From an uncultured Akkermansia sp. (GTDB lineage: Bacteria > Verrucomicrobiota > Verrucomicrobiia > Verrucomicrobiales > Akkermansiaceae), in the NCBI GenBank assembly GCA_947588645.1, contig CANPYO010000002.1, positions 11,864 through 75,863 on the forward strand: a DNA stretch of 64,000 nucleotides, read 5' to 3'. The notes below the pieces were generated by a model, which saw nothing but the letters and a program-made list of their open reading frames with translations, was not told the DNA's origin and made no database searches. Of the stretch, positions 11,775 to 48,264 are shown piece after piece; position 1 is the first letter of the stretch, and the number at the start of each line of letters is the position of its first letter. Both the position numbers and the translations under genes were made by a program.

Positions 11775-11951
11775 ATGGGCAAAAGCGAGGACGTTCTCAC
11801 GAATGTTCAAACCAAGAAGGTAAGATATGTTGGGCGCAATGTGCAGCGCCGTGTTGTGAGCTCCTTTTGGGTAATTTTCTGGTGTGCGCTTGCTCTTCTC
11901 TCTATGTCTCTGTGGCTGCTGCGCCTCCTAGGGCTTGTCAGCTTCCTGTGA
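11775..11951 (+). CDS. Possible small membrane protein (58 aa)
   Basis: Basic N-terminus followed by a hydrophobic C-terminal helix (FWVIFWCALALLSMSLWLLRLLGLV); fills an otherwise empty gap. Confidence 0.35.
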   Translation: MGKSEDVLTNVQTKKVRYVGRNVQRRVVSSFWVIFWCALALLSMSLWLLRLLGLVSFL

Positions 11952-30477: not shown

Positions 30478-30922
30478 CAAGGCAAACGCATTAGAAAATG
30501 CGTTTGCCTATGTACGATGTACGATTTTCGATGTACGATTTGGAAATAGCGCGCGCCTGCGGCGCGGGGATGCTGAGCAGAAGCAAACGGAAATTTGAAA
30601 GCCGTGTGCGGATGTGGTTAGAAAGTGATGGGAATTGCAAAGCGGGAGCAGTCGCGGTGGAAGGTGGAGGTTTCACTTCCATCTCCCATGAAACGCATTA
30701 GAAAATGCGTTTGCCTATGTACGATGTACGATTTTCGATGTACGATTTGGAAATAGCGCGCGCCCGCGGCGCGGGGATGCTGAGCAGAAGCAAACGGAAA
30801 TTTGAAAGCCGTGTGCGGATGTGGTTAGAAAGTGATGGGAATTGCAAAGCGGGAGCAGTCGCGGTGGAAGGTGGAGATTTCACTTCCATCTCCCATGAAA
30901 CGCATTAGAAAATGCGTTTGCT
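30478..30922 (+). repeat. Tandem duplication of a 207-bp MITE-related unit (2 units plus a third hairpin)
   Basis: AAACGCATTAGAAAATGCGTTTG at 30484, 30691 and 30898 (period 207); the two units differ at two positions that I could see. Confidence 0.93.
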
Positions 30923-31028
30923 ATTTATGATTTTGAAATTTTTGCCGCGAAAAAATTGGGAGTTTTTATGCTCCTTTTTTCTGTTTCATATTTCATTTTA
31001 ATTGATTAAGAAGATCTCTGGAGTGCTC

Positions 31029-31214
31029 ATCTCTTTTTGAAAGAGATGTCAAGTGAAAAGAAAAATGTTTTTTCACGGTACGTGAGTTACGAAGATTAGA
31101 AACGACTAAAATGCCACGCGTCAGGTGTGTTTTGCGTAAGTGTGTTTTATTGTATAGAGCTTAATACAAATAGTGTATGATCGCTGAAGGTGTATATCTC
31201 TTTCAAAAAGAGAT
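31029..31214. promoter_or_regulatory. Pair of 19-bp palindromic sites in inverted orientation flanking 148 bp of AT-rich leader
   Basis: ATCTCTTTTTGAAAGAGAT (31029-31047) and ATCTCTTTCAAAAAGAGAT (31196-31214) are exact reverse complements; candidate -10 TATGAT at 31176. Confidence 0.7.
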
Positions 31215-31265
31215 ATGCTGGCGCCTGATCAGGGGATCCCTGCTTCATGATTTTCTCTGTACAAC

Positions 31266-31547
31266 ATGCCTTCTCTCAAAGAAAAGATTCATTTGGAAGT
31301 GGTTATAGACGTCGCCATGGCGGTCGTACTAATCGCGTCGCTATGGGTAGGAGCAGGCTACTATCAACGTGCGGGTCGGTTGGAGAGACGGACGGATCAA
31401 ATATGCGCCCGTATCAAGAGCGTGGAACGCGAATCTGTCAGACTCGATAACAGACGATCCGGTACCAACGCGCAGGAACTGTCGCGTGAAATCGACATGT
31501 TGGAAGACAAAGTAACCGAGCTGAATGCTCTGCTCAGGGAGGAATAA
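31266..31547 (+). CDS. Cassette ORF1-A: N-anchored coiled-coil protein (93 aa)
   Basis: TM VVIDVAMAVVLIASLWVGAGYY followed by a heptad-rich tail. Confidence 0.65.
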   Translation: MPSLKEKIHLEVVIDVAMAVVLIASLWVGAGYYQRAGRLERRTDQICARIKSVERESVRLDNRRSGTNAQELSREIDMLEDKVTELNALLREE

Positions 31548-31551
31548 GCGC

Positions 31552-32295
31552 ATGAAAGAGACAATTCGAGTGGCGTTGAAAATAGCAACCGGCCTGGCCG
31601 CCGCCTGGGTTCTCTGCATGTTCGTGTTCTGCCTGTTTTCAGAGAGAACTCTGCACAGGGCAGAACTACAGCTGCAGGACGCCGCCGCACAGTTGGCCGA
31701 GGAAAAAGACGCACATGAGGAGGATAAAGCTATGGTCAAAGAGCTGCGCAAGATGAGGCTCGATCTCAAAAACGAACTGCGTGTGCTCAAAAAACAGCTT
31801 GCTCTGAAAAAGGGACTCTCGGAGGGGACAGAAATCTCCGCGGAGGAGCTTTCGGATGCCCTCTCAGAACGCGAACGTTCCGAAGCCAAGCATGACCTTT
31901 TGCACGAGAATAGGACGCTGCTGCGCAGAATTGCCGAGTCGCGTTACGCTCTCCGCTCATACAGGACTCCGCCTTGTTTGGAAACTCTCGATGATGAATA
32001 TCAGGAGAGACTGCGGAGCATTCACGGGAAATGGAGAGCGGCCGTGCAATCTCTGCTTAACGTTGCTACCCGAGGAGAGGCGGATAAGGTACTCCGCCTG
32101 CAGGAACAAGTGCGAGAACTCGCCGACTCTGCGGACGTTCTCACAGGGAACACGCAGCTCTATTTTAACCAGGCGGGACGGATAGCCGAAGTCGCCGACG
32201 AGCTTTTGAATGCCGCCACCGCTCGCCAACTTCTGCTTCGTCGATCCGAAGAGTTGGACATCCCCGTCAATCCCGAAATTTCCCCTAACCCCTGA
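31552..32295 (+). CDS. Cassette ORF2-A: N-anchored coiled-coil protein (247 aa)
   Basis: TM IATGLAAAWVLCMFVFCLF followed by long amphipathic helices. Confidence 0.7.
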   Translation: MKETIRVALKIATGLAAAWVLCMFVFCLFSERTLHRAELQLQDAAAQLAEEKDAHEEDKAMVKELRKMRLDLKNELRVLKKQLALKKGLSEGTEISAEELSDALSERERSEAKHDLLHENRTLLRRIAESRYALRSYRTPPCLETLDDEYQERLRSIHGKWRAAVQSLLNVATRGEADKVLRLQEQVRELADSADVLTGNTQLYFNQAGRIAEVADELLNAATARQLLLRRSEELDIPVNPEISPNP

Positions 32296-32301
32296 CTCCA
32301 T

Positions 32302-32556
32302 ATGGATAAATACATTAACATAGGCCTCGTCGTCATTATCATTGCTGCAATTTTAGTCGGCAGGCATTTCTATTCCCAAAAGTCAAACACGGAAATCTCC
32401 ATTGAGAACACGCAAAAGAAGATTGAAGGTATTCGAAGGGAAATCTCCTCGATCAAATCCAAGGTGAACTCCCTTGGCACCCGTCAACTTAATGCCGAGA
32501 AATCCCGCTTGGAAAGGCAACAGGAACAGCTGAAAACGGAACTCGAAAGAATCTGA
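32302..32556 (+). CDS. Cassette ORF3-A: N-anchored coiled-coil protein (84 aa)
   Basis: TM INIGLVVIIIAAILVG followed by a coiled coil. Confidence 0.7.
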   Translation: MDKYINIGLVVIIIAAILVGRHFYSQKSNTEISIENTQKKIEGIRREISSIKSKVNSLGTRQLNAEKSRLERQQEQLKTELERI

Positions 32557-32571
32557 TAACTCATAAAACAC

Positions 32572-33408
32572 ATGGACATTCTACTTAAAATTCTGGCAGT
32601 GCTGACCCTGATCTGGGGAGGCTGGATGTATTTCATAAGTTCCGATGATGAGGCAAAGCTGAGGGGAATTCGTAACGAACTCAAAGTAGCCAAGCAAGAA
32701 TTGGGCGATGCACGAGTTGCTTACGAGGAAGAGAGCAAAAAATGCGAGACTCTCGCAGGGGAGATAGATACCCTAAAGGAGAATGCTCAGGAATTGAGAA
32801 AAGAGATCACCACGAAGAGGGAGGAAAAGAAGAAACTAGCCGCTCAGGAACGTCAAGAACGACTGGAAGCAGAGAGAAAGGCGCGAGAAGAAGCCGCAGA
32901 GGCACGGAGAGAAAAATTAAGGATTCAAAAAGAAAAGGAGCAGGAGAGCAGAATGGCCTTATTGGAACGCGAAAAACAATTTGAAAAAGAGGAAGAAGAA
33001 AAAGAAAAAGCTGAGCAAGCTAAACAGGATGCCGAGTATGAGAAGGAAGAAAGGAAGGAAAGAATTCAACAATTAAAAAGAAGGATAGAAAGTTCGACTC
33101 GTGGACTGGAGAGCTATAGTTCCTGCTCGGCTTACGCTCCTCCGGGCAAAAAAGATTTCGGACAAGTTGAAAAGATGCGGCAGAATTGGACCTCATTTGT
33201 TCGAAGTTGTATTGAAGCAGTCGATAAAGGTGATTCAAAGAGGTTTGAAAGTACCGGAAAGAAACTTCTCAATACGGCGAAAGCTCTGGATAGAATTTGT
33301 GATGGTCGCTACGTAAGTGATGCTACAAATTTCGTTGCTGAAGGCAGAAAAATACTAGGGGCAAAGAAAGAGCTGCAGGAGCTGGAAAAATTGAATAAAA
33401 GCGAGTAA
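32572..33408 (+). CDS. Cassette ORF4-A: N-anchored protein with a charged E/K/R stalk and Cys-containing C-terminal domain (278 aa)
   Basis: TM ILAVLTLIWGGWMYF, TolA-like charged helix, C-terminal domain with three Cys. Confidence 0.75.
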   Translation: MDILLKILAVLTLIWGGWMYFISSDDEAKLRGIRNELKVAKQELGDARVAYEEESKKCETLAGEIDTLKENAQELRKEITTKREEKKKLAAQERQERLEAERKAREEAAEARREKLRIQKEKEQESRMALLEREKQFEKEEEEKEKAEQAKQDAEYEKEERKERIQQLKRRIESSTRGLESYSSCSAYAPPGKKDFGQVEKMRQNWTSFVRSCIEAVDKGDSKRFESTGKKLLNTAKALDRICDGRYVSDATNFVAEGRKILGAKKELQELEKLNKSE

Positions 33409-45694: not shown

Positions 45695-46534
45695 CTAAGA
45701 CTCGCTTTTATTCAATTTCTCCAGCTCCTGCAGCTCTTTCCATACCCCTAGTATTTTTCTGCCATCAGCAACGAAATTTGTAGCATCACTTACGTGGTGA
45801 CCATCACATATTCTATCCAGTGCTCTCGCTGTATTGAGAAGTTTCTTCCCGGTCTTTTCAAACGTATTTGAATCACCTTTATCGACTGCTTCAATACAAC
45901 TTCGAACAAATGAGGTCCAATTTTGCCGCATCTTTTCAACTTGTCCGAAATCTTTTTTGCCCGGAGGAGCGGAGGCCGAGCAGAAACTATAGTCCTCCAG
46001 TCTACGAGTCCAACTTTCTATCCTTCTTTTTAATTGTTGAATTCTTTCCTTCCTTTCTTCCTTCTCATACTCAGCAGCCTGTTCTTTTTCTTTTTGTTCT
46101 TCCTCTTTTTCAAATTGTTTTTCGCGTTCCAATAAGGCCATTCTGTTCTCCTGCTCCTGCTCCTGCTCCTTTTCTTTTTGAATCCTTAATTTTTCCCTCC
46201 GTGCCTCTGCGGCTTCTTCTCGCGCCTTTCTCTCTGCTTCTAATTGTTCTTGACGTTCCTGAGCGGCTAGTTTCTTCTTTTCCTCTCTCTTCGCGGTGAT
46301 CCCTTTTCTCAATTCCTGAGCATTCTCCTTTAGGGTATCTATCTCCCCTGCGAGAGTCTCGCATTTTTTGCTCTCTTCCTCGTAAGCAGCTCGAGCATCG
46401 CCCAATTCTTGCTTGGCTACCTTGAGCTCGTTACGAATTCCCCTCAGCTTTGCCTCATCATCGGAGCTTTTGAAGTACATCCAGCCCCCCCAGATCAGGG
46501 TCAGCATCGCCAGCATTTTAAGTAGAATGTCCAT
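45695..46534 (-). CDS. Cassette ORF4-B (279 aa), diverged paralogue of ORF4-A
   Basis: Same architecture; many substitutions and indels relative to 32572-33408. Confidence 0.75.
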   Translation of the reverse strand: MDILLKMLAMLTLIWGGWMYFKSSDDEAKLRGIRNELKVAKQELGDARAAYEEESKKCETLAGEIDTLKENAQELRKGITAKREEKKKLAAQERQEQLEAERKAREEAAEARREKLRIQKEKEQEQEQENRMALLEREKQFEKEEEQKEKEQAAEYEKEERKERIQQLKRRIESWTRRLEDYSFCSASAPPGKKDFGQVEKMRQNWTSFVRSCIEAVDKGDSNTFEKTGKKLLNTARALDRICDGHHVSDATNFVADGRKILGVWKELQELEKLNKSES

Positions 46535-46549
46535 GGCTTTTATGAGTTA

Positions 46550-46804
46550 TCAGATTCTTTCGAGTTCCGTTTTCAGTTGTTCCTGCTGCTTTTCCAAGCG
46601 GGTTTTTTCGGCATTAAGTTGACGGATGCCAAGGGAGTTCACTTTGGATTTGATCGAGGAGATTTCCCTTCGAATTCCTTCAATCTTCTTTTGCGTATTT
46701 TCAATGGAGATTTCCGTGTTTGACTTTTGGGAATAGAAATGTCTGCCGACTAAAATTGCGGCAATGATAATGACGACGAGACCGATGTTAATGTATTTAT
46801 CCAT
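46550..46804 (-). CDS. Cassette ORF3-B (84 aa)
   Basis: Three amino-acid differences from ORF3-A. Confidence 0.7.
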   Translation of the reverse strand: MDKYINIGLVVIIIAAILVGRHFYSQKSNTEISIENTQKKIEGIRREISSIKSKVNSLGIRQLNAEKTRLEKQQEQLKTELERI

Positions 46805-46817
46805 ATGGGGTCAGGGG

Positions 46818-47561
46818 TTAGGGGGTAGGTGAAGTTTCGGGATTGACGGGGATGTCCAACTCTTCGGATCGACGAAGCAGAAGTTGGCGAGCGGTAGCGG
46901 CATTCAAAAGCTCGTCGGCGACTTCGGCTATCCGCCCCGCCTGGTTAAAATAGAGCTGCGTGTTCCCTGTGAGAACGTCCGCCGAGTCGGCGAGTTCTCG
47001 CACTTGTTCCTGCAGGCGAAGTACCTTATCCGCTTCTCCTCGGGTAGCAACGTTAAGCAGAGATTGCACGGCCGCTCTCCATTTCCCGTGAATGCTCCGC
47101 AGTCTCTCCTGATATTCATCATCGAGAGTTTCCAAACAAGGCGGAGTCCTGTATGAGCGGAGAGCGTAACGCGACTCGGCAATTCTGCGCAGCAGCGTCC
47201 TATTCTCGTGCAAAAGGTCATGCTTGGCTTCGGAACGTTCGCGTTCTGAGAGGGCATCCGAAAGCTCCTCCGCGGAGATTTCTGTCCCCTCCGAGAGTCC
47301 CTTTTTCAGAGCAAGCTGTTTTTTGAGCACACGCAGTTCGTTTTTGAGATCGAGCCTCATCTTGCGCAGCTCTTTGACCATAGCTTTATCCTCCTCATGT
47401 GCGTCTTTTTCCTCGGCCAACTGTGCGGCGGCGTCCTGCAGCTGTAGTTCTGCCCTGTGCAGAGTTCTCTCTGAAAACAGGCAGAACACGAACATGCAGA
47501 GAACCCAGGCGGCGGCCAGGCCGGTTGCTATTTTCAACGCCACTCGAATTGTCTCTTTCAT
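46818..47561 (-). CDS. Cassette ORF2-B (247 aa)
   Basis: Identical to ORF2-A except two residues at the C-terminus. Confidence 0.7.
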   Translation of the reverse strand: MKETIRVALKIATGLAAAWVLCMFVFCLFSERTLHRAELQLQDAAAQLAEEKDAHEEDKAMVKELRKMRLDLKNELRVLKKQLALKKGLSEGTEISAEELSDALSERERSEAKHDLLHENRTLLRRIAESRYALRSYRTPPCLETLDDEYQERLRSIHGKWRAAVQSLLNVATRGEADKVLRLQEQVRELADSADVLTGNTQLYFNQAGRIAEVADELLNAATARQLLLRRSEELDIPVNPETSPTP

Positions 47562-47565
47562 GCGC

Positions 47566-47847
47566 TTATTCCTCCCTGAGCAGAGCATTCAGCTCGGTTA
47601 CTTTGTCTTCCAACATGTCGATTTCACGCGACAGTTCCTGCGCGTTGGTACCGGATCGTCTGTTATCGAGTCTGACAGATTCGCGTTCCACGCTCTTGAT
47701 ACGGGCGCATATTTGATCCGTCCGTCTCTCCAACCGACCCGCACGTTGATAGTAGCCTGCTCCTACCCATAGCGACGCGATTAGTACGACCGCCATGGCG
47801 ACGTCTATAACCACTTCCAAATGAATCTTTTCTTTGAGAGAAGGCAT
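47566..47847 (-). CDS. Cassette ORF1-B (93 aa)
   Basis: Protein identical to ORF1-A. Confidence 0.65.
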   Translation of the reverse strand: MPSLKEKIHLEVVIDVAMAVVLIASLWVGAGYYQRAGRLERRTDQICARIKSVERESVRLDNRRSGTNAQELSREIDMLEDKVTELNALLREE

Positions 47848-48264
47848 GTTGTACAGAGAAAATCATGAAGCAGGGATCCCCTGATCAGGCGCCAGCATAT
47901 CTCTTTTTGAAAGAGATATACACCTTCAGCGATCATACACTATTTGTATTAAGCTCTATACAATAAAACACACTTACGCAAAACACACCTGACGCGTGGC
48001 ATTTTAGTCGTTTCTAATCTTCGTAACTCACGTACCGTGAAAAAACATTTTTCTTTTCACTTGACATCTCTTTCAAAAAGAGATGAGCACTCCAGAGATC
48101 TTCTTAATCAATTAAAATGAAATATGAAACAGAAAAAAGGAGCATAAAAACTCCCAATTTTTTCGCGGCAAAAATTTCAAAATCATAAATAGCAAACGCA
48201 TTTTCTGATGCGTTTCATGGGAGATGGAAGTGAAACCTCCATCTTCCACCGCAGGCGAGCATAC

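Follow-up and report, generated by a model that had tools for sequence, protein, structure and literature searches.

A family of invertible segments in rabbit-gut Akkermansia and a probable split promoter upstream of a duplicated membrane-protein cassette

Here we asked what is done by two 19-bp palindromes in the leader of a small gene cassette from an uncultured Akkermansia sp. (assembly GCA_947588645.1, contig CANPYO010000002.1). The window, that is, the whole 64,000-nt stretch that was analysed (positions 11,864 to 75,863 of the contig), holds two copies of this arrangement. An earlier note had read the palindromes either as the ends of an ON/OFF promoter inverton or as two operators for a dimeric regulator. 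At issue are whether the enclosed DNA inverts, and where a promoter for the cassette would lie.

The repeat pair and its duplicated cassette

In copy A the two repeats are, as the earlier note had them, exact reverse complements with 148 bp between. The distal inverted repeat (IR), ATCTCTTT-TTG-AAAGAGAT, spans 31029-31047, with arms at 31029-31036 and 31040-31047 around an asymmetric TTG core (31037-31039). The proximal IR, ATCTCTTT-CAA-AAAGAGAT, spans 31196-31214 and has its CAA core at 31204-31206. The two enclose the interior at 31048-31195, and the whole element of 186 bp sits 52 bp upstream of ORF1. This IR pair pattern was absent from all 100 dinucleotide-preserving shuffles of the window (mean 0.00). 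Each site is really an imperfect palindrome of about 27 bp, GYAY-ATCTCTTT-NNN-AAAGAGAT-RTRC. An Rfam scan of the leader returned nothing meaningful. Two terminator-like hairpins on the + strand, just upstream of the distal IR within 30898-30983, would insulate the switch from transcription arriving from upstream; the first is at 30898-30919, and the second, at 30958-30975, runs into a T tract. A weak terminator-like hairpin within the interior (31115-31129, + strand) faces ORF1 in the present orientation only.

The controlled cassette of copy A (31266-33408, + strand) has four ORFs, 93, 256, 84, and 278 aa in length. All begin with an N-terminal hydrophobic segment and continue into a long charged, heptad-like region, and none of the four matched a Pfam family. 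The cassette is a four-gene operon of predicted membrane-anchored coiled-coil proteins. Copy B (45695-47847, - strand) is its reverse complement, 93-99% identical, the two being parts of a 2.55-kb inverted duplication in the window (30861-33406 on the + strand against 48252-45700 on the - strand, 96% identity). Here the proximal IR is at 47899-47917, and the distal IR at 48066-48084 leads into TGAGCA (48084-48089). The interior (47918-48065) matches that of copy A at every position (100% identity), and the two stand in the same state with respect to their cassettes. The pair had been described as repeated in copy B in the same relative orientation. It does recur, as the reverse complement of A rather than as a second direct copy, and the like orientation is automatic and uninformative, since mutually reverse-complementary palindromes read alike on both strands.

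A switch family with flipped members

A genome scan for the palindrome, which the earlier note had proposed, revealed a genome-wide family. We designated as class I the 8-3-8 palindromes with ATCTCTTT/AAAGAGAT arms, and this genome (G000) contains 45 such sites, including 20 clean pairs. Their cores differ among loci (TTG, TCA, ATG, TCG, and TTA) and are reverse-complementary within every pair (20/20). A 3-nt core cannot be palindromic because its length is odd, and this covariation bears out the idea of an asymmetric core that fixes directionality. Rabbit Akkermansia MAGs, about a dozen of them, yielded 57 further class-I loci. Of 81 genus representatives, only 5 have exact class-I pairs, and these 5 all belong to the rabbit clade. 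DNA homology between the invertons of this genome and the 57 loci of other species is nearly absent, and interiors are unrelated in sequence between loci, with length and polarity alone conserved. IR spacing in 79 invertons has two modes, 154-158 and 165-171 bp, which differ by one helical turn; these 79 loci, used in the later analyses, were chosen by core reverse-complementarity and are thus no independent test of core pairing. Class-I elements always lie 10-130 bp upstream of a gene start. Their targets include autotransporter beta-domain proteins, GT2 and DXD glycosyltransferases, a Sel1 protein, a DUF805 protein, and small membrane proteins.

Flips were sought among homologous pairs across the whole locus set, and the interior was flipped between conserved flanks in 12 of 34 pairs. 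In one of these (L020:6055 and L055:58), both the flank (500 bp) and the flipped interior (149 bp) are 100% identical; C42 and C55 of G000 form a flipped pair too. For the cassette studied here, the sister-species orthologue in G057 has an interior that aligns to that of G056 only if flipped (z 6.1 versus 0.5). Inversion at this cassette's own switch is thus seen, by alignment, between assemblies of orthologues. G057 is the only flipped orthologue; its outer IR arms are degenerate, and the G057 switch may be locked. The G031 and G056 orthologues share the state of both window copies. Contig ends fall within 200 bp of 5 of the 45 sites (p = 0.005), the inner edge of an IR is the exact end of two contigs, and in G042 a contig begins within the proximal IR that precedes the orthologous cassette. 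The position of the switch is kept at orthologous cassettes in five species. With a genome-wide IR family, cores that covary within pairs, and flipped alleles both in the family and at the orthologous switch, we are highly confident that segment 31029-31214 and its twin at 47899-48084 are invertons, that is, phase-variation switches.

Two readings that involve no programmed inversion were weighed against this. Were the sites paired operators, a dimeric or tetrameric regulator would loop the 148-bp leader, and the near-perfect palindromes are indeed of a size suited to dimeric regulators, with a centre-to-centre spacing of 167 bp that is close to 16 helical turns. Beyond this fit nothing spoke for the operator or looping alternative. 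It leaves unexplained why cores are complementary within pairs while differing between loci, as well as the 12 flipped interiors, the flipped orthologue, and the contig breaks at sites, and a like design in A. muciniphila inverts experimentally (PMC13343947). We regard it as very improbable. The short, IR-bounded, multi-copy unit could also be taken for a MITE, with 19-bp terminal inverted repeats and a 148-bp body spread by a transposase. Such elements would not be expected to show what is seen here, namely bodies conserved between loci in nothing other than length and polarity, IRs with no target-site duplication (gtgctc versus atgctg), constant placement upstream of gene starts with orthologous positions kept across the five species, and an interior that flips as both flanks stay put. 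A MITE is even less credible than looping operators.

The earlier note had remarked that there was no recombinase and no flipped copy, and this is correct for the window only. Beyond it there are flipped copies in related assemblies and a family of recombinases in the genome. We found no serine recombinase in this genome; tyrosine recombinases gave twelve matches in eleven genes. Seven of these, on contigs C7, C4, C81, C29, C98, C10, and C26, are paralogous, Xer-like, and retain the catalytic residues, and five of the seven adjoin class II/III-like switches of their own. By comparison, a gene of this family is nearby at only 1 of the 57 class-I loci, which indicates an invertase acting in trans. 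The class-I invertase is likely a trans-acting member of this seven-paralog family, judging from gene content and placement. Neither gene neighbourhood nor co-occurrence linked one paralog to class I; close orthologues of C7 are present in G057, where exact class-I pairs are lacking, and absent from G056, which has class I. Our literature search on Akkermansia tyrosine recombinases returned no relevant paper.

Promoter architecture and orientation

The interior of copy A carries an outward-facing -35 hexamer, TTGACA, at its distal edge (31047-31052, - strand), the last A of which is the first IR base on that strand. Directly upstream of it is an A/T-rich, UP-element-like tract (31053-31075, - strand), corresponding to the conserved 'AAAA' block that position-wise information shows at the A end of family interiors. 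As assembled, this hexamer points away from the cassette into the distal ('D') fixed flank, where TGAGCA (31024-31029, - strand, reading outward from the IR) provides no usable -10; the same TGAGCA recurs at the gene-distal flank of many members. At the other end, TATGCT (31214-31219, + strand) is formed by the last T of the proximal IR and 5 nt of the cassette-side ('P') flank. Copy B repeats this layout, with TATGCT at 47894-47899 (- strand) and TTGACA at 48061-48066 (+ strand), pointing away from its cassette. We infer that the promoter is probably split, with the -35 and A/T tract on the invertible segment, the -10 in the fixed flank, and the IR as the 17-nt spacer between them after inversion. 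Since the -35 is at the far end and points away, both window copies are, judged by these motifs, probably OFF or low as assembled.

The promoter grammar of this genome agrees with such a junction. The pattern TTGACA-N-TAnnnT has a sharp peak at N=17 (97 occurrences, against about 10 at off-spacings and about 6 in the reversed control), and TATGCT ties for commonest -10 among the TTGACA-17 promoters. A TAnnnT at the exact IR-edge register is present in 50 of 158 flanks, compared with 0-9 at any other register. All five orthologous cassettes keep a -10 hexamer at that register, the cassette-side flanks of the five species reading TATGCT, TATACT, TATACT, TAAACT, and TAGACT; the distal flank is not conserved. 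In the window, the flipped junction scores 11.5 and the best assembled promoter 9.5. A. muciniphila-type and class II/III invertons likewise have TTGAC at an equal distance from the site centre, and their opposite fixed flank reads TATAAT, TATACT, TACACT, or TAGTTT. Because this TTGAC placement is common to IR classes with unrelated arms, it points to a factor common to all of them, RNA polymerase, rather than to a class-specific recombinase.

Other measures were less clear. Tests of the gene side, run on crude ORF calls, gave weak and noisy results (p = 0.016 and p = 0.10), and ORF1 of the window, at 93 aa, is below their length cut-off. When assembled and flipped states were compared by simple sigma-70 scoring, the junction-spanning promoter was chosen in only 22 of 50 loci. 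Pseudo-promoters are frequent in the A/T-rich interiors, which makes such scoring indecisive for the family as a whole. A literature search for split- or hybrid-promoter inversion switches found no relevant paper.

The main competing explanation is a classical inverton, in which a complete promoter lies inside the segment near its cassette-proximal ('B') end. The assembled state would then be ON, as would most members of the family, and the TTGACA-like hexamer and TAnnCT flank would be asymmetric portions of sites bound by the recombinase or an accessory protein, with no promoter role. To our knowledge, all well-studied invertons (fimS, hin, and the B. fragilis PS loci) have the whole promoter inside, which we counted in favour of this explanation. 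The B end is A/T-rich, and strings of the form TAATAAAT...TAYNAT recur loosely there, 14-40 nt from the IR. Part of the sequence bordering the IR extends the palindrome of the recombinase site, and this alone favours A at flank +1. Many family members have TGGACA or TGTACA in place of TTGACA, and neither hexamer gives an N=17 peak elsewhere in the genome, making both poor -35s by the genome's own statistics. On the other side, the B end is low in position-wise information and has no fixed-register hexamer, where the A end has both such a hexamer and its A tract. The TATGAT that the earlier note had taken as a candidate -10 is present (31176-31181, + strand), but it is unlikely to be the main promoter: its best -35 partner at 17 nt is TATAGA, which is not acceptable, and a consensus scanner found no + strand promoter toward ORF1 in the assembled state. 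An internal promoter also does not account for the constant TTGAC distance across unrelated arms, or for an exact-register -10 that is kept on the cassette side in five species and not in the distal flank. Finally, the promoter motif published for the interior of Akkermansia invertons did not pass the directional test in PMC11892184. We consider the internal promoter unlikely, and hold with moderate confidence to the complete reading of an inverton with a split promoter that is OFF as assembled.

In the proposed mechanism, a tyrosine recombinase encoded elsewhere would bind both 19-bp (really about 27-bp) sites, and strand exchange in or around the asymmetric 3-nt core would invert the 148-bp interior. 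Inversion would bring TTGACA-17-TATGCT together some 45 nt ahead of ORF1, and the promoter so formed would switch on the operon and its four membrane-anchored coiled-coil proteins. A wider model, which we advance only tentatively and would not quite bet on, extends this to all Akkermansia inverton classes (ATCTCTTT, CGGATT, and ACGTATT arms). Each would carry its -35 and UP element on the segment and its -10 on the gene-side flank, with the IR as 17-nt spacer, so that inversion assembles or disassembles a sigma-70 promoter instead of reversing a complete one. The rabbit clade would have re-tooled the arms and enlarged the Akkermansia-type Xer-like family, in which Asp replaces the first His of HxxR, to 6-12 paralogs in place of 1-4, with several beside class-specific switches. 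This would suggest that one 2.5-Mb genome houses a number of invertase-switch sets, orthogonal or hierarchical to one another.

Relation to other switches and significance

By sequence comparison, the locus is an inverton of the type known from A. muciniphila, with new repeat arms (ATCTCTTT, not CGGATT). Akkermansia invertons are credited by PMC13343947 to Jiang et al. (2019, Science 363:181), PMC11892184 lists an Akkermansia 'inverton group 138', and the A. muciniphila design was experimentally shown to invert, with a cps1 capsule inverton among the examples (PMC13343947). The two sets, from one genus, are alike in forming genome-wide families of tens of switches, in their short palindromic IRs (17-19 bp) with a 3-nt asymmetric core varying by locus, and in interiors of about 150-160 bp with TTGAC and an A/T tract at one interior edge. 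Both target autotransporter or PEP-CTERM-type surface proteins and glycan genes, and most switches in both have no adjoining invertase gene. They differ in their unrelated arms (ATCTCTTT/AAAGAGAT versus CGGATT/AATCCG) and in that the switch here precedes an unannotated four-gene coiled-coil membrane cassette and is seen to invert only by comparison of assemblies. We found the CGGATT-NNN-AATCCG pattern in complete A. muciniphila genomes; the longer ACGGATT-NNN-AATCCGT had no match in 81 genomes. In the genome studied here, CGGATT..AATCCG occurs as isolated sites only, one pair of which adjoins the recombinase gene C26.

The Mpi promoters of Bacteroides fragilis also share one IR consensus among many dispersed surface-structure switches served by a trans-acting invertase (Krinos 2001; Coyne 2003, to the extent that PMC11892184 cites them). 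However, Mpi is a serine recombinase, of which this genome has none, and Bacteroides promoters are contained entirely within the invertible segment, with IRs that are not 8-3-8 palindromes. E. coli fimS (FimB/FimE) resembles the switch here in its tyrosine-recombinase-type inversion of a short promoter segment. In both, asymmetry comes from IR-adjacent sequences that are not identical, and so small a loop probably depends on helical phasing and bending of the DNA. The fimS element measures 314 bp, has 9-bp IRs and a promoter complete within it, and lies beside its recombinase genes, in contrast to a 148-bp interior, 19-bp IRs, a recombinase in trans, and a promoter that is probably split. In the hybrid or junction promoters of insertion sequences (IS), an outward -35 in an IS end pairs with a -10 in the flank or in the other IS end. 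As in the proposed switch, a mobile -35 becomes active only when a resident -10 is correctly spaced from it. Those promoters are products of transposition or circle formation, not programmed switches that can be reversed, whereas here conservative inversion would make and unmake the junction, and the recombination site would itself be the spacer.

The literature that we examined contained no description of the enzymes or promoter logic of Akkermansia invertons. Since the rabbit clade uses a different recognition sequence, searches with CGGATT..AATCCG miss about 20 switches per genome. The seven recombinase genes, together with a clean 186-bp substrate, form a short list for identifying the invertase, and a 19-bp site doubling as promoter spacer would offer a compact element for building synthetic switches. 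Should the promoter be split, the ON orientation of Akkermansia invertons may need reassigning, with most switches OFF in consensus assemblies, and the split may also explain why the published in-inverton motif failed directionally. Akkermansia, in which phase variation of the surface is known, is in development as a probiotic. In the window itself, both cassette copies would be phase-variable envelope genes.

Palindrome pairs and the duplicated cassette

Copy A of the switch (31029-31214) is followed by a cassette at 31266-33408 on the + strand, and copy B (47899-48084) by a cassette at 45695-47847 on the - strand. The palindromes of copy A are where an earlier note on this DNA had placed them, ATCTCTTT-TTG-AAAGAGAT at 31029-31047 and ATCTCTTT-CAA-AAAGAGAT at 31196-31214, 19 bp each, with 148 bp between them. 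This pattern had 0 occurrences in 100 dinucleotide-preserving shuffles of the window. The pair in copy B is also present (47899-47917 and 48066-48084), but the note's remark that it keeps the same relative orientation is uninformative: the two palindromes of a pair are mutually reverse-complementary and both strands read alike, so a shared orientation is automatic. Copy B is not a second direct copy but copy A in reverse complement, and together they form a 2.55-kb inverted duplication (30861-33406, + strand; 48252-45700, - strand) with 96% identity. Each arm carries the leader and four ORFs (93, 256, 84, and 278 aa), whose products have hydrophobic N-terminal segments followed by long, charged, coiled-coil-like regions. 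None of the four products matched a Pfam family, and an Rfam scan of the leader matched no family. The genes around the cassettes are housekeeping genes (enolase, pdxA, uvrB, purA, and carA).

Two tandem 207-bp repeats, 99% identical, occupy 30484-30897, each consisting of the hairpin GGCAAACGCATTAGAAAATGCGTTTGCC and then TACGAT-type short repeats. This hairpin resembles a REP-type terminator element and has dozens of copies dispersed over the genome. Two terminator-like hairpins lie immediately upstream of the distal inverted repeat (IR) of copy A, on the side away from the cassette, and a weak one inside the interior faces ORF1 in the present orientation only.

The four window sites (31029, 31196, 47899, and 48066) have identical arms and share the TTG/CAA core, and recombination between non-partners is conceivable in principle for the invertase. 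Exchange of 31029 with 48066, or of 31196 with 47899, would invert about 17 kb including uvrB, purA, carA, thrS, and infC; sites 31029 and 47899 are in direct orientation, and their exchange would delete that block of genes. Other paralogous switches have unlike cores (for example, TCG on contig C42 and TTA on C55), which might restrict cross-talk.

The class-I family and evidence for inversion

The assembly holding the window (G000) comprises 2.49 Mb in 158 contigs with a G+C content of 54.9%. A genome scan for the palindrome, which the earlier note had suggested, found 45 sites that fit the 8-3-8 pattern when up to one mismatch is allowed. They comprise 20 clean pairs spaced 157-169 bp, one pair spaced 224 bp, two three-site loci, and singles at contig ends. 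The full site is a longer, imperfect palindrome, GYAY-ATCTCTTT-NNN-AAAGAGAT-RTRC. The core trinucleotide varies by locus (TTG, TCA, ATG, TCG, and TTA) and is reverse-complementary in every G000 pair. Such covariation is what would be expected of recombination sites with an asymmetric crossover core that sets orientation, and would be unexpected of operators. The three-site switches (C3:39888-40201 and C20:12248-12562) each combine a single TCA-core site with two TGA-core sites, at distances of 157 and 295 bp; they precede genes encoding proteins larger than 6,000 aa, and two alternative nested inversions are possible at each.

When one genome per prokaryotic species was scanned for the exact pattern, 57 further class-I loci were found, nearly all in metagenome-assembled genomes labeled “uncultured Akkermansia sp.” from rabbit (“Lapin”) gut. 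Three are on contigs binned as Lachnospiraceae or Acetatifactor (L011, CANQDA010000076; L050, CANPWA010000030; L055, CANQDA010000094). Since the L055 flanks are 100% identical to an Akkermansia contig, these look like binning errors rather than transfer. Within the genus, exact class-I pairs occur in only five of 81 species representatives. Interiors are conserved between loci in length and polarity, but not in sequence. Among 79 invertons, IR spacing is bimodal, with 25 loci at 154-158 bp and 54 at 165-171 bp. The modes differ by one helical turn, which suggests that synapsis in such a small loop is constrained by phasing.

For class-I pairs that matched over at least 90 bp of interior and at least 80 bp of flank, we compared interior strand with flank geometry. 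Interiors were flipped in 12 of 34 homologous locus pairs and co-linear in the other 22. For example, loci L020:6055 and L055:58, from two different rabbit samples, differ only by inversion of the interior, with 500 bp of flank and the 149-bp interior both 100% identical. Within G000, the paralogous loci C42:9917 and C55:3895 are mutually flipped, and three other paralogous pairs, including window copies A and B, are co-linear. Cassette orthologues with 65-70% DNA identity occur in four other species, and all four carry an inverton of class I or a class-I-like type at that position. Interiors from G000, G031, and G056 share one orientation in alignments (z 4.6, 3.2, and 2.6), that of G057 can be aligned to G056 only as its reverse complement (z 6.1 vs 0.5), and the G042 contig starts within the proximal IR of its cassette. 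The sites in G000 are also enriched for contig ends: 5/45 have one within 200 bp (p = 0.005), and the inner edge of an IR is the exact end of two contigs. Because a 19-bp repeat alone should not break an assembly, mixed orientations in the sample are a plausible cause.

The flips between homologous and orthologous loci, together with the core covariation, indicate that class-I pairs are invertons and that the window's switch has undergone at least one flip since these species separated. The earlier note had left open an invertible promoter or operators for a looping regulator; its palindromes are confirmed and the sequence comparisons support the former. We rejected the operators, as a looping regulator leaves core covariation, flips, and contig breaks all unexplained. 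A miniature transposable element (MITE) was also excluded, given unrelated interiors, no target duplications, a constant position upstream of genes, and conserved orthologous sites.

About 30 invertons with CGGATT..AATCCG as their IR motif are reported for A. muciniphila, one of them with 17-bp IRs about 157 bp apart (PMC13343947, PMC11892184), and its cps1 inverton was found in ON and OFF forms by PCR-digest and qPCR (PMC13343947). In four large Akkermansia genomes from the genus set, two of them complete, we found 10-15 exact CGGATT-NNN-AATCCG pairs per genome, 155-179 bp apart, with a 3-nt core that varies by locus and is reverse-complementary within the pair. The design is the same as in class I and the arms alone differ, so we classify the window's switch as a new sequence class of a known Akkermansia inverton kind.

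The functional targets also match. A. muciniphila invertons are found near PEP-CTERM/autotransporter genes (PMC11892184), and one adjoins the cps1 capsule locus (PMC13343947). Typically in G000, a long ORF begins 10-130 bp beyond one IR and is directed away from it. Among the products are proteins that range from 1,000 to over 6,000 aa and bear an MKLHLP-type signal, the one tested having an autotransporter beta-domain, as well as two family-2 glycosyltransferases, a DXD-motif glycosyltransferase, a Sel1-repeat protein, a DUF805 membrane protein, and a Y-family DNA polymerase. The latter (499 aa, impB/mucB/samB) lies downstream of two tandem class-I invertons (C97:3151-3872), which are separated by 534 bp and enclose an 89-aa ORF. 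The implied phase variation of an error-prone polymerase would be unusual.

Candidate invertases

No serine recombinase (PF00239) was found in G000. PF00589 gave twelve matches in eleven genes: a XerC/XerD-like pair, two 424-aa phage-type integrases, and seven paralogs of 301-346 aa with 33-91% mutual identity. The catalytic residues Arg, Lys, Arg-His, His, and Tyr are retained in all seven, with Asp at the first His of the XerC/D HxxR motif (DVLRH). Five of the seven genes have an IR-bounded segment of their own, or a single contig-end site, immediately upstream, and these belong to other classes: TACGTATT-TSA-AATACGTA (ACGTATT-type) at C98:7805-7978 and C10:33230-33424, CGGATT-type at C26:19410-19596 and upstream of C29:24096, and ATGATT-TGA-AATCAT (ATGATT-type) at C81:1-18. 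In the recombinase-linked class II/III elements, TTGACA abuts one IR and the opposite fixed flank is TATAAT, TATACT, or TACACT. The TTGACA end of these switches now faces the recombinase gene, with a good -10 on the far flank.

Each of the eleven Akkermansia genomes tested has the paralog family. Copy number is 1-4 in the four large CGGATT-type genomes and 6-12 in the remaining seven, among them all five genomes with exact class-I pairs. Only one of the 57 class-I loci has a family gene within a few kb, which indicates that class-I inversion acts in trans; the absence of a recombinase from the window, as the earlier note had observed, is then expected. The paralogs on C7 and C4 have no switch of their own and are the first candidates for the class-I invertase, but close C7 orthologues are distributed in imperfect agreement with class I. 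One 424-aa integrase gene (C2:76163-77437) lies about 300 bp past the window's right end; it has an 83% identical paralog on C93 and is unrelated to the seven-member family.

Predicted promoter geometry at the switch

Iterative PWM refinement was used to orient all 79 interiors. Conservation is high at the A end, which reads inward as GT[CA]CAG and then an A tract; read outward, this is an A/T tract followed by TTGACA, TGGACA, or TGTACA, with the final A as IR base 1. The B end has low position-specific information. The fixed flanks are of two kinds, one reading TAnnCT from the IR's last T outward (TATGCT, TATACT, TACACT, TAAACT, or TAGTCT) and the other typically TGAGCA, and the gene is on the TAnnCT side wherever this can be determined in G000. 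TAnnnT occurs at the exact IR-edge register in 50/158 flanks and at every other register in 0-9. A -35 whose last base is IR position 1 is separated by 17 nt from a -10 that begins at position 19. Genome-wide, TTGACA-N-TAnnnT has a sharp peak at N=17 (97 occurrences, with TATGCT the joint commonest -10), compared with about 10 at other spacings and about 6 in a flat reversed control, so the 17-nt spacing is native promoter grammar.

We favor, with some reserve, a split promoter at class-I switches, in which the invertible segment would bring the -35 and A/T tract, the fixed cassette flank the -10, and the IR the 17-nt spacer. In copy A, TTGACA (31052-31047, minus strand) is at the cassette-distal edge and directed away from the cassette, and TATGCT (31214-31219) is on the cassette side of the proximal IR. 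Inversion would create, about 45 nt before the start codon of ORF1, the sequence ...CATTTTTCTTTTCAC-TTGACA-TCTCTTTCAAAAAGAGA-TATGCT-GGCGCC.... Under the split-promoter model both window copies would be OFF, as would 26 of 33 clearly scorable class-I loci in the consensus assemblies, with the other 7 ON. The cassette-side hexamer is -10-like in 5/5 orthologues (TATGCT, TATACT, TATACT, TAAACT, and TAGACT) in otherwise diverged flanks, and the distal flank is not conserved. In the flipped G057 orthologue (L117, G057:C33:12364-12550), the -35-like end (…GGTATTTTGAACTGTAC, then A) abuts the cassette-side IR, the ON state that the model predicts. Its outer IR arms are both degenerate (TTGTCTTT.., ..AAGGATAT) and its inner arms intact, so this switch may have decayed and be locked ON.

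The alternative is a classical inverton with a complete promoter inside the segment and an assembled state that is ON, as the earlier note implied with its -10, TATGAT at 31176. That hexamer is the best ORF1-facing candidate in the assembled state, but its -35 is poor (TATAGA), and a consensus promoter scanner found no + strand promoter toward ORF1 in this state. The proposed -10 and ON state are probably wrong, and we consider the classical arrangement unlikely. Several observations nonetheless weigh against a split promoter. Many loci have TGGACA or TGTACA, neither of which has an N=17 peak elsewhere in the genome; the bases bordering the IR belong in part to a palindromic extension of the recombinase site; association with crude ORF calls was weak; and simple promoter scoring chose the junction-spanning promoter at only 22/50 loci. 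On the other side, CGGATT-type invertons have …GTCAA(T/C) and an A/T tract at one interior edge, which reads outward as TTGAC and lies 9 nt from the site center, the same as in class I. At their predicted -10 register, TAnnnT occurs in 4/10 opposite flanks vs 0/10 adjacent flanks. The class II/III elements of G000 described above have this geometry too. Its retention at sites whose arms are unrelated points to a factor that all classes share, namely RNA polymerase, rather than a class-specific recombinase.

We found no paper on natural invertons that describes a split-promoter design. A “promoter motif” within Akkermansia invertons failed a directional test (PMC11892184), and a split promoter may explain that failure. 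The probable split-promoter mechanism merits experimental test.
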